Shown one piece after another: positions 20,773 through 23,700 of a DNA stretch of 64,000 nt; within the stretch, counting starts at the first letter, position 1, and the number at the start of each line of letters is the position of its first letter. The stretch is from a bacterium (GTDB taxonomy: Bacteria > Patescibacteriota > Minisyncoccia > Phycocordibacterales > Phycocordibacteraceae). The stretch spans positions 480,001-544,000 of the forward strand of contig JBBCGK010000001.1 in assembly GCA_037200965.1 (NCBI GenBank), in the 5' to 3' direction. The position numbers were made by a program, and so were the translations under genes. A model generated the notes under the pieces. The model was not told the origin of the DNA, made no database searches, and was given only the letters and a program-made list of their open reading frames with translations.

Positions 20773-23700
20773 ACGGGCCGTCTTCGGCCTTCACCGCCTG
20801 CGCGGCGTCCTGCGGGGAAAGCCCGAGGGATTTCCTCGCCTCCGCCACCGCGCGGGTAAACGCGCGCTCGTCCCCTTCGGCAATGAGGCCGGGCGTAAGC
20901 GCGGTGTCGAGCGAGATTCCGGCGGCTCCCGTCACCACCTCCTTCACATTCACCTCTTCCGCAAGGATTTTCGCGAGTTCGGACGACAGTTCTCCCGGAA
21001 CAAAGAGCTTTGCGAGCGGCTGGCGCACTTTCATATCGGCCTTCTGGCGAAGCTGGAGCGCTTCTGACGCGAGCGAGCGCACTCGTGCCATGTCTTCGAT
21101 AAGTCGGGCGTCGGGCGTGGCGGCTGCGGAAGGCCAGTCAGCGAGGTGCACGCTTTCCGGATCGCTTTCGCTTCGGACGGTTTTAAATACGTCCTCGGCA
21201 AGAAACGGCGCAAACGGAGCCAGGAGCAGGGCTCCGGTATGGAGCGTCTCGCGCAGCACCTTAAGCGCGGCGACGTCGCCGTCCTTTACGCGATCGCGTA
21301 TGCGCCGCACGTACCATTGGGAAAGGTCTTCGAAGAGTCTTGATACCGAACGGGTCGCGTCATACAGCTCGTACGCATCGAGCGCTTCCGTAACCTCACG
21401 CGCCGTAGCGGCCGTCCGGGCGTTCATCCAGACATCTGTCGGCTGCAGGGTACCTTCCGCATGCTGAGTCTCGCCTTTGAAGAGAGCGTAGAAACGAGCA
21501 CTCTGCTCGAACCAGTTGAGAGTGCGCACCGCCTCCTTGACCGTCTTCTCGTCGAAGTTCTTCGAATCCCCCGCCCGGTTCACGCTGTACATCCAGAACC
21601 GGAGCGCATCGACGCCCCATTTTTCCATCTCGGCGAACGGCTCGACGACATTGCCCTTGCTCTTGCTCATCTTCTGTCCGTTCGCATCAAGCAGGTGTCC
21701 GAGGCAGATGACATTCTTATACGCGGTACCGCGCTCCATGAGCGTCCCGACCGCAAGCAGGGTATAGAACCAGCCGCGCGTCTGGTCGATCGCTTCGGAG
21801 ATGTAATCGGCGGGATATGCGATACCCGACAGATATTCGGAAAGCGATGCGCCGCCTTTCTCATTCGCGCCTTGGGCGAACGGCATCGCTCCGGAATCGA
21901 ACCACACATCCATTACTTCCTTCACGCGCCGAAGCTCCGTGCCTTTGTCGGACAGAAGCACGACGTCGTCGATATACGGACGATGCAAATCGAGCTCGTA
22001 GTCTTCGTTGTGCGGGAGCGGAACGAAATCAAACTTCTTAGCCTTAGCATGTTCGATAAAATCATTCTCGACTTGATATGCGAGAATTTCCGCGCGCGAT
22101 TTGCCGGAGGCAACGTCAAAAAGAGCCTGCGCCGCCGCATCATGCGTAACGATAAGAATGTTTTTGCTGCTATAGTCTCGCTCGAGAGCGTACAGCGCCT
22201 CACCGACACGTCGCTTTATGGAAACGAATGATTCAAACCCTCCCAAAAGAGTTTCTTGCATCCAGCTTTCCATGGTAGGTACCGCAGCCCAGAATTCAGT
22301 GCGCGGTTTGCCTTCGAAGGTACCGGTGTCGAATTCACGAAAGCGTTCATCAACGACAACCGAGGATTCTGGAAGATTAAGCGTGCGCGCAACGATATCG
22401 GCGGTCTCGCGCGTTCGCAGGAGCGGAGAAACGACAATCAGATCAATCTTTTGTGTTGTAAGCCTGTCAGCTTCACGCTGTACGTCTGTCCTTCCTTGCT
22501 CTGTGAGGTGGCAAGTTCCGGGAAATACGCTGCTGAGAATATTTTTGACGTTATTCTCGGCTTCGCCGTGCCGTATCACGAAATATGTATTCCCGCTTTT
22601 CTTCGTCCGCGCCTTAAGCTCCTCGATGGAGCCGATGACAACCTGCTCCTCCCCATTTTCGCTTCGCCACACCGGCAGAGGAGTGCCCCAATACCGTTCC
22701 CGCGATATCGCCCAGTCCTTCGCGTTCGCGAGCCACTCCCCCATTCTTCCTTCGCGGATATGCGCCGGTACCCAGCCTATTTTGTTGTTTTCTTCGACGA
22801 GCGTTCCGCGCAGGTCCTGCATGCGGATATACCACGAATCGCGCGCGTAATAGATGAGACGGGTCTTGCAGCGCCAGCAGAAGGGATACGAGTGCTCGTA
22901 CTTGCCCTTTGCGAACAGGAGTCCGCGCGCGGCAAGATCTTTGACGATATCGACTGCGACGTCTTCGTCCGCAGCGAACCGGTTTTCGAGGAATCCGGTA
23001 CCCGACACGAACCTGCCTTGGGGATTCACGAGATGGACCTTCGGGAGACCGACCTGATTCCCAAGGTCGAAGTCTTCCTGTCCGTACATAACGGCCGTAT
23101 GCACGATGCCGGTGCCGTCCGTGGTCGTGACGAAATCCGCAGCATAGACTTTGAAAGCCGCACCGAATCGCGGCTTCTCGCTCTCCGGCGCGAGCTCCTT
23201 CGCAAACGGATAGAGCGGCTCGTACTGAAGCCCGGTCAATACCGTTCCCGCAAGCTCGGCGGCCGGTTTCCCAAGGCCCAGTTTTTCCGCAAGCGCGGTC
23301 GCGGCGACGAGATTCTCGCCGTCCTTCTCGTATATGCCGTACGTGATATCGCCACCCACCGCGAGTCCGACGTTCCCCGGAAGCGTCCACGGCGTCGTGG
23401 TCCATGCAAGCAGGTGCGTATTCCCAGGGAGTCCGTTCTTCTGCGGGTCGATCGCCTTGAACTTCGCCGTTATCGTAAGGTCTTTCACGTCTTCATATCC
23501 CTGCGCAAGCTCATGGGAAGAAAGAGCCGTCTCGTCGCGCGGGCACCACGGCACCACCTTATAGTCCTTGTAGACGCGCCCGTCCTTCGCGATTTTCGCG
23601 AAGATATTCCACAGCACCTCCATATAGGAAGGGTCGAAGGTGAAATACGCCTTACTCTGGTCGACCCAGTATCCGATGCGCGTCGTAAAGCGAGCCCACT

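Follow-up and report, generated by a model that had tools for sequence, protein, structure and literature searches.

A histidine phosphatase domain embedded, as an exchangeable cassette, in the isoleucyl-tRNA synthetase of Patescibacteria

The isoleucyl-tRNA synthetase (IleRS) gene ileS, located on the minus strand of the 64,000-nucleotide stretch of Patescibacteriota DNA analysed here (the window; contig JBBCGK010000001.1 of assembly GCA_037200965.1, positions 480,001 to 544,000), encodes a synthetase whose CP3 subdomain houses what sequence profiles and structure prediction confirm as a complete, independently folding branch-1 histidine phosphatase (HP) domain. The organism is a tiny bacterium of the symbiotic type. 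The architecture is clade-wide in Patescibacteria, and the partnership of the phosphatase with IleRS and with valyl-tRNA synthetase (ValRS) was restricted to Patescibacteria in the collections searched. The inserted phosphatase is the covalent version of a two-gene partnership, and comparison of homologues indicates that its core has been replaced by recombination through conserved junction arms, with the catalytic residues held fixed.

The insert comprises residues 491-698 of the ileS product (~208 residues; 21992..22615, minus strand). Its boundaries were set by alignment against five insert-less Patescibacteria IleRSs, and the span rests on the insert-less type-2 enzymes (IleRS2) of loci L001, L003, L005 and L006 as well as on alignment to PDB structures. 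An earlier reading of the same DNA (the original prediction) had placed about 200 extra residues inside ileS at 22000-22610, in close agreement with these limits. In the alignment with the reference IleRS structure 8c8w, residues 9-492 of the window protein match residues 9-476 and residues 692-1048 match residues 480-845, so that about 200 residues replace about three, and in insert-less IleRS2 the sequence '...GSIEEL' runs straight into 'DLHRPYID...'. The possibility that the segment is a normal IleRS sub-domain bearing coincidental motifs was excluded by these alignments together with the Pfam, PDB and structural results. Directly before the insert lies the 13-residue CP2-CP3 linker, after which CP3 comes, and the insert is therefore located within CP3; in yeast IleRS the same linker lines the pocket of the tRNA terminal adenosine (A76), with CP3 next (PMC7955072, PMC7191050, whose nomenclature of the IleRS CP subdomains is followed here). 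The insert separates the halves of the CP3 zinc knuckle (CxxC ... CxC) in several homologues, the insertion point being the tip of what in relatives is a zinc knuckle.

The assignment to the histidine phosphatase superfamily, which had been proposed from short motifs (an RHGE motif, LTEQGRTD and a 10-residue stretch, all of which were found), is borne out by the Pfam profile His_Phos_1 (PF00300), which matches residues 502-674 (22064..22582, minus strand) with E = 7.1e-31 and 107.8 bits against a cutoff of 21.7. The profile match is accompanied by the full RHG/Arg/Glu/His set of branch 1 and by a superposable alpha/beta fold. AlphaFold2 modelled the insert with a predicted local distance difference test score (pLDDT) of 92-98 within the full-length protein and of 92.8 when it was modelled alone (predicted template modelling score, pTM, 0.90), as expected of an independent domain. 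Foldseek comparison of the insert alone recovered PhoE (1h2e, template modelling score, TM, 0.77) and the phosphoserine phosphatase PspA (4ij6, TM 0.79), as well as Rv2419c, CobC and a riboflavin-pathway HFP, and the best PDB sequence match was likewise found among the PhoE-type small histidine phosphatases (E = 6e-10).

The description of the domain as PGAM-like stands with respect to the superfamily, and not with respect to mutase activity. By profile comparison the insert is a PhoE-like phosphatase rather than a mutase, because the equivalog cutoffs for the cofactor-dependent glycolytic phosphoglycerate mutase (dPGM; NF038349, 77.3 vs 225, with bacterial dPGM models weaker or absent), CobC (TIGR03162, 71.9 vs 162.9), PspA (NF045917, 44.6 vs 350) and SixA (TIGR00249, 37.6 vs 74.5) were all missed. 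The dPGM shape is also lacking, the domain being about 190 residues long without a tail and bearing D, not GN, after H648. The best phosphatase match in NCBIfam was NF005567 (E = 5e-23), again below its cutoff (81.9 vs 326). The family of IleRSs fused to a GNAT domain (ileS_w_GNAT, NF040702) was rejected at 283 bits against a cutoff of 1999, the window protein having no GNAT domain. An intein or mobile element was likewise rejected, as Pfam reveals no HINT domain, the junctions lack a nucleophile and there is no endonuclease; the sequence 'PHN' at residues 691-693 precedes E/D and sits in a conserved linker, unlike an intein C-terminal junction, in which Cys, Ser or Thr comes after His-Asn.

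The synthetase that carries the domain is encoded by a single uninterrupted reading frame (20714..24085, minus strand; 1123 residues) and is, judging from its motifs and profiles, a complete and apparently functional type-2 IleRS of the GXHH subclass. Pfam recognizes tRNA-synt_1 (E = 3.6e-116, as two stretches), His_Phos_1 and Anticodon_1 in the product, and the ileS equivalog TIGR00392 is reached with 817 bits against a cutoff of 621. Residues 1-490 (22616..24085, minus strand) encompass the first Rossmann half, the CP1 editing domain with its WTTTPWT and GTGIVH motifs, CP2, the CP2-CP3 linker and the first half of CP3; residues 699-1123 (20714..21991, minus strand) contain the second half of CP3, the second Rossmann half with WFDSG and KMSKS (residues 805-809; 21659..21673, minus strand), the anticodon-binding domain and the C-terminal domain. 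The class I signature, read from the sequence, is the non-canonical G54-I-H-H57 (23915..23926, minus strand), in which GXHH replaces HXGH; together with the type-2 body, this G/A-X-H-H form defines the GXHH subclass of IleRS2, and the signature was reported to confer mupirocin hyper-resistance on IleRS2 (PMC10485003). The best PDB matches are the IleRS2 entries from Priestia megaterium, one of them the GVHH variant 8c8w, and superposition of the body on IleRS2 structures gave TM values of 0.76 (8c8v) and 0.86 (1ile). The full-length AlphaFold2 model has a mean pLDDT of 85.6 and a pTM of 0.75; the pLDDT falls below 50 near GIHH (residues 44-80, window ~23846-23956) despite high conservation there, probably as an artefact of modelling with three recycles and a shallow alignment. 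No second ileS is present within the 64-kb window.

The domain had also been called catalytic-looking, and its complete catalytic set is indeed intact. The RHG motif supplies R505 and H506 (22568..22573, minus strand), H506 being the predicted phospho-accepting nucleophile; both residues were retained in 120 of 120 homologues and in divergent fragments. The second phosphate-binding arginine, R557, which lies in a 10-residue motif (22415..22417, minus strand), and the second catalytic histidine, H648, of the LIVTHD motif (22142..22144, minus strand), are equally invariant (120/120 each), and the predicted general acid E584, in another 10-residue motif (22334..22336, minus strand), is glutamate in 118 homologues and aspartate in two. 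By this assignment, H506 would attack a phosphate group held by R505, R557 and H648, with E584 acting as general acid. The conservation sample consisted of the 120 best full-length homologues, which are 61-70% identical to the window protein and derive from organisms labelled Patescibacteria, Paceibacterota, Minisyncoccia or Kaiserbacteria. The PF00300 insert was detected in every one of them and at 23 loci in GTDB genomes, which dismisses a one-off event or an assembly artefact. In this sample, identity is about 40-44% in the insert, compared with 69-72% in the IleRS body, and the catalytic residues also persist in fragments only 35-50% identical and in second-site or tandem copies. Such strict conservation of five catalytic residues over hundreds of highly divergent copies demonstrates selection on catalysis, and a degenerate or purely structural domain is ruled out because these residues are invariant despite the divergence. 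In some relatives (P0236, P0019 and P0079) the embedded phosphatase lacks the cap region of about 30 residues between the general-acid glutamate and the GGES motif, as a result of which a more open, SixA-like active site is expected.

The low identity of the insert is not the product of uniform fast drift. Across the 120 homologues, mean identity amounts to 72% in the body and 44% in the insert, and the two are nearly uncorrelated (slope 0.25). For the 24 pairs with a body identity of 85% or more, the identity of the phosphatase core is bimodal (32-49% in 13 pairs, 70-93% in nine and between these ranges in two), and even bodies more than 90% identical can carry cores that are only about 40% identical. 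The breakpoints are sharp: proteins P0131 and P0132 are 92-100% identical in the body and drop to 24-52% exactly between 'KRSGNTYxVMRHGEAE' and a 23-residue C-terminal motif. Incongruence was observed in 14 of the 120 proteins, in which the nearest neighbour by body has a core less than 50% identical and a more distant body carries one at least 65% identical. At 60% identity, the homologues contain 65 core types, and six near-identical bodies in one group hold five of them. The free-standing HP genes described below are likewise decoupled from the neighbouring ileS. Bimodality at constant body identity, sharp breakpoints and incongruence thus exclude simple drift and indicate that the core has been replaced by recombination between lineages. 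The recombination arms are the N-terminal junction motif TKKSGNxYFxxRHGEAExN (residues 494-512; 22550..22606, minus strand), upstream of the core, and the 23-residue C-terminal junction motif (residues 685-707; 21965..22033, minus strand), downstream of it; both are marked by conservation and coincide with the P0131-P0132 breakpoints. The gene in the window bears a matching signature, as maximum-likelihood two-breakpoint segmentation of its GC content at third codon positions (GC3) placed the change-points at the cassette boundaries, delimiting a low-GC3 segment that corresponds to the exchangeable core (residues 499-687; 22025..22591, minus strand; GC3 0.497 vs 0.723 in the rest of the gene).

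The closest free-standing relatives of the insert are proteins of about 190 residues that, like the insert, start with '..NxYFxLRHG' and are 31-35% identical to it. In all seven evaluable cases, such a gene directly precedes, on the same strand, an ileS without the insert, and the two frames often abut or overlap. The shared gene order in relatives, also seen at L008, is ArgRS - [HP] - IleRS - RecO - DUF11 protein - class II aminoacyl-tRNA synthetase (aaRS); in the window, the anchors of this synteny are argS (27508..29154, minus strand) and recO (20164..20772, minus strand), the latter downstream of ileS. A metagenome scan seeded with the stand-alone phosphatases yielded 80 loci, of which 76 were evaluable and four were not; the N-terminus of ileS was immediately downstream of HP in 68 of the 76, with a gap of no more than 120 nt in 66 of these 68. 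In all 69 loci holding both genes (the 68 and one in which they are about 2.9 kb apart), HP and ileS are separate reading frames. No end-to-end (N-terminal) HP-IleRS fusion was found in these 69 pairs or in about 90 representative architectures, despite gaps of near 0 nt. The partner IleRSs of the stand-alone phosphatases belong to both the canonical HYGH and the GXHH types. None of the 22 complete loci with an inserted HP has an adjacent HP gene and no locus with an adjacent HP carries the insert, the two arrangements being mutually exclusive in the loci examined. This alternation of gene pair and insertion is a classic case in which fusion and neighbourhood together speak for a functional link. 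Selection appears to favour internal placement, because end-to-end fusion was never seen and internal insertion has recurred at several IleRS and ValRS sites. In two stand-alone loci, NUDIX hydrolase genes adjoin the HP-ileS pair (L005, 3915-4361; L006, 9890-10432) and may represent a further nucleotide-related partner.

The original prediction regarded a phosphatase embedded in an aaRS as unusual, which is accurate for biology as a whole and does not hold within Patescibacteria, where the arrangement is common. A scan of one genome per GTDB species identified 23 loci with the phosphatase in-frame in CP3, labelled among others as Patescibacteria, Paceibacteria, Minisyncoccia, Yanofskybacteria, Spechtbacterales, Peregrinibacteria/Peribacteria and, for some metagenome-assembled genomes, Saccharibacteria; two loci of the Peregrinibacteria/Peribacteria hold the phosphatase as two tandem copies. 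In the same scan, no HP was encountered within 4 kb of 57 insert-less IleRS2 loci from outside the Patescibacteria, mostly Bacteroidota. The best 150 matches to the insert in 1.84 billion representative proteins were mostly IleRS-embedded copies, and their architectures include a pair of phosphatases within CP3, a phosphatase at a second position, where the catalytic domain meets the anticodon-binding one, an IleRS combining HP with an in-frame IS200-like Y1 transposase domain and an ElaA-like GNAT (P0299), an IleRS combining HP with a P-loop kinase-like domain (P0328; kinase-like matches of this domain are weak, that to Pnkp1 having E = 0.054) and a ValRS carrying at least four HP domains (P0244). 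The arrays in some relatives contain two to four divergent, catalytically intact phosphatases. ValRS accounted for two representatives of the insert matches, and a follow-up revealed the domain in 37 of 119 related ValRSs (Magasanikbacteria, Moranbacteria and others), where it is inserted mainly behind the WFSSG...GWP motif and within the zinc knuckle that corresponds to CP3; its presence differs among close relatives and its catalytic residues are mostly intact. All insertion sites in IleRS and ValRS are around the catalytic and acceptor-end half, and none is in the anticodon-binding half or at the termini. On two contigs (P0042/P0069, 12,542 bp; P0060/P0064, 94,646 bp), ileS seems to have been called as two genes with the break at or after the phosphatase, and these calls could reflect real split genes, frameshifts or sequencing errors.

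With regard to function, the phosphatase is proposed to sit alongside the synthetic and acceptor-end site in IleRS or ValRS, where, tethered to the synthetase, it would remove phosphate from a variable phosphorylated molecule that otherwise blocks aminoacylation. Candidate substrates include a phosphorylated or adenylate-like inhibitor, a toxic nucleotide analogue, and a phosphate attached to the 3' end of the tRNA or to the synthetase, and under the pressure of such diverse threats cassettes would turn over, multiply into arrays and be exchanged horizontally. The protective assignment, in which a phosphatase tethered to the synthetase detoxifies or repairs, is tentative, plausible although falling somewhat short of even; it would fit best because hypervariability is combined with invariant chemistry, the arrays are divergent, GNAT or P-loop kinase-like domains are co-inserted in relatives and the same enzyme bears the inhibitor-resistance motif GXHH, the support from the motif, the additions and the arrays being by analogy. 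Taken as functional hints of their own, the co-inserted domains were set aside, the P-loop domain being only weakly kinase-like and the GNAT being ElaA-like without known function. The more specific version, in which an arms race has exchangeable cassettes, tethered to their target as an 'immunity' or repair module, guard IleRS and ValRS from diverse phosphorylated inhibitors or (pyro)phosphorylating toxins, is possible and rather doubtful. The explanation as a whole, comprising the intact exchangeable CP3 cassette and the tethered protective role, is considered evenly balanced between right and wrong.

Several points weigh against the protective role. We know of no natural inhibitor of IleRS or ValRS that bears a hydrolysable phosphomonoester, and the usual substrates of histidine phosphatases are monoesters, unlike the phosphoramidate or diester linkages found in the known adenylate-mimic antibiotics. 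The insert matches no defence family in PADLOC-DB (one stand-alone relative gave a marginal match, E = 4.6e-4, taken as spurious), and the search for close viral relatives of the domain returned only the generic phage HP family phrog_12933; phage origin and membership of a defence system were rejected on these grounds. The HP domains are not basic (median isoelectric point ~6-6.5), giving no sign of RNA binding, and the fast divergence of the core could partly result from weak constraint. Eight of the 76 stand-alone copies lack an ileS in the 1.5 kb downstream of them (for one, it follows at ~2.9 kb), and one insert-less valS locus has no adjacent HP. Finally, the restriction to IleRS and ValRS is accounted for by no model.

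Among the alternatives, the healing of tRNA 3' ends would strip the CCA end of a 2'/3'-phosphate, or of the terminal phosphate of a pyrophosphate, and make tRNA-Ile or tRNA-Val chargeable again, the damage possibly arising from nucleases or toxins. It draws on the precedent of the E. coli CCA-adding enzyme, whose HD domain has phosphatase activity, on the confinement of the insertion sites to the catalytic and acceptor-end half, on the A76-lining linker that precedes the insert, and on the relative that pairs HP with a P-loop kinase-like domain in a manner resembling kinase-phosphatase end-healing enzymes, weak as its Pnkp1 match is. Six of the eight tRNA genes of the window (52399-62286) lack an encoded 3' CCA, with only tRNA-Leu(gag) and tRNA-Ser(tga) appearing to encode it, from which dependence of the organism on a CCA-adding enzyme follows, an observation that bears on hypotheses concerning tRNA ends. 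However, a universal CCA end leaves the restriction to IleRS and ValRS, the hypervariable cassette and the multi-copy arrays unexplained, the HP domains lack a basic character, and a histidine phosphatase acting on tRNA was not found in the literature searched; 3'-end healing is considered unlikely. An improbable reading, too, is that of a housekeeping phosphatase (PhoE-like, or specific for phosphoserine or sugar phosphates) which was co-expressed in the ileS operon and later captured within the gene without any link to aminoacylation. The nearest solved relatives, namely PhoE, PspA, Rv2419c, CobC and the riboflavin-pathway HFP, are indeed small-molecule phosphatases, reduced genomes keep gene order and tolerate odd fusions, and at least one Patescibacterium has the cofactor-independent phosphoglycerate mutase (iPGM) for glycolysis. 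In that organism, a member of the Magasanikbacteria, an enolase gene and two iPGM genes lie just upstream of an insert-less valS (L093, 760-5185), so that the glycolytic mutase there requires no HP-family enzyme and HP is free for other metabolic duties. Such hitch-hiking is nonetheless at odds with the absence of the easy end-to-end fusion from a gap of ~0 nt, given that internal insertion recurred at several sites in two synthetases, with horizontal cassette replacement in a nearly constant essential gene, which is atypical of a housekeeping enzyme, and with the failure to reach any curated equivalog cutoff.

A regulatory module, which would either dephosphorylate IleRS and so undo the action of a Ser/Thr/His kinase (a HipA-type toxin, for example), or sense a phosphometabolite and tune IleRS allosterically, is distinctly unlikely. 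The histidine phosphatase family does include the protein phosphatases SixA, Sts and PGAM5, the capless homologues with their open, SixA-like site would suit such a role, and the high conservation and confident modelling of the junction linkers suggest that the domain is rigidly docked. On the other hand, a kinase partner was seen in no locus, the conserved general acid favours turnover over mere binding, and neither multi-copy arrays nor cassette exchange would be expected of an allosteric sensor. The least probable reading, to which very little credence is given, is an essentially neutral or selfish insertion, that is, a domain-sized element residing in permissive loops of essential genes, hard to delete and spread by homologous recombination. 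Variable presence among close ValRS relatives, horizontal exchange with compositional anomaly, and the other foreign in-frame domains of these IleRSs, including the IS200-like Y1 transposase domain, agree with it; the strict conservation of the five catalytic residues largely refutes it, and both the absence of mobility or splicing machinery (no HINT, no junction nucleophile) and the conservation of a free-standing partner gene beside ileS argue in the same direction.

Aminoacyl-tRNA synthetases are among the most conserved enzymes, and in bacteria they seldom acquire a further catalytic domain. In the case described here, the catalytic core of IleRS, and in other lineages that of ValRS, houses a second, seemingly active enzyme, and does so across a large and poorly understood bacterial radiation. 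A functional link is argued from three independent signals, namely the alternation of gene pair and insertion, the recurrent internal and never terminal insertion, and the cassette-like horizontal replacement of a core whose catalytic residues are invariant. Should the phosphatase serve to protect or repair the charging machinery, it would exemplify a new principle, that of polymorphic defence-like modules within housekeeping enzymes, and would point to aaRS-directed toxins or antibiotics, so far unknown, in the ecology of Patescibacteria. The finding also has implications for annotation, as these proteins are under-annotated (the NCBI entry identical to the window protein, P0121, is titled 'MAG: class I tRNA ligase family protein') and metabolic reconstructions of these organisms may mistake the embedded domain for a phosphoglycerate mutase or phosphatase gene. 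In the searchable full-text literature, no description of an aaRS-histidine phosphatase fusion was found, and papers on IleRS2 motifs and IleRS domain evolution, including PMC10485003, make no mention of a phosphatase insert; an exchangeable catalytic cassette inside an essential gene is, as far as the literature was searched, undescribed.

The surroundings of ileS in the window show further peculiarities. Four aaRS genes (MetRS, a class II aaRS with an HGTP anticodon domain, IleRS and ArgRS) are clustered within 16 kb (13141-29154), in an order kept in relatives L001, L003 and L008. The conserved ArgRS-PLD-IleRS-RecO-DUF11 block is broken by a methyltransferase gene (24120-24827), an open reading frame (ORF) without a Pfam match (25120-25791) and a sulfotransferase gene (19613-20167), all three of which look recently inserted because the syntenic locus L008 lacks them and their GC content is 0.45-0.50, as compared with ~0.6 in the flanks. 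A cas1 gene (PF01867, E = 1e-63; 12030-13085, minus strand) adjoins metS where L008 has TatD; it is neighboured by two ORFs without Pfam matches (9497-11068, 523 residues; 11065-11529, 154 residues), no CRISPR array or direct repeats were detected in window 6500-13200, and the locus may represent a solitary cas1 or an unrecognized system. Elsewhere, two transposase or integrase genes, one IS30-like (HTH_38 + rve) and one of the rve/rve_3 type, are located at 45480-46523 (plus strand) and 38328-39371 (minus strand), and a 706-residue protein with SpvB and FG-GAP repeats (4099-6219, plus strand) resembles the N-terminal part of a toxin complex or Rhs-type protein.

Among known systems, the enzymes most similar to the insert itself are PhoE (YhfR of Geobacillus stearothermophilus), PspA/iPSP1, the Rv2419c GpgP and CobC, which share its fold, its length of ~200 residues and the RHG...R...E...H set (TM 0.72-0.79). 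These PhoE-type enzymes are free-standing and metabolic, whereas the insert is embedded in or paired with an aaRS, forms an exchangeable cassette and falls below every equivalog cutoff. The characterized GXHH IleRS2 (PMC10485003) shares with the window protein GXHH at the HIGH position, KMSKS and the IleRS2 architecture, but its CP3 loop comprises about three residues at the place where the window protein carries its insert. An additional catalytic domain in IleRS is also the hallmark of NF040702 ('isoleucine--tRNA ligase, N-acetyltransferase domain-containing'), although the type of the extra domain differs, and the relative P0299 combines HP and GNAT. The Rv2228c-type RNase H/CobC-like acid phosphatase (NF005567) likewise joins a branch-1 histidine phosphatase to a nucleic-acid enzyme, the link being unexplained; it is an end-to-end fusion with another partner enzyme, while the window protein results from internal insertion. 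Inteins resemble the insert as large in-frame elements at a conserved site of an essential gene that display horizontal exchange, compositional anomaly and presence/absence polymorphism, but they possess a HINT fold, splice nucleophiles and a homing endonuclease, whereas the phosphatase insert has none of these and would stay in the mature protein, selected for catalysis. A parallel is also provided by the editing modules of aaRSs, as the ProRS INS domain and YbaK/ProX, or the AlaRS editing domain and AlaX, represent one module that is either free-standing or inserted. Like these modules, the phosphatase occurs as a separate protein or within the synthetase catalytic core; the editing modules, however, are aminoacyl-ester hydrolases with a proofreading role, whereas the phosphatase module is hypervariable and has no obvious substrate in the canonical aminoacylation and editing cycle.

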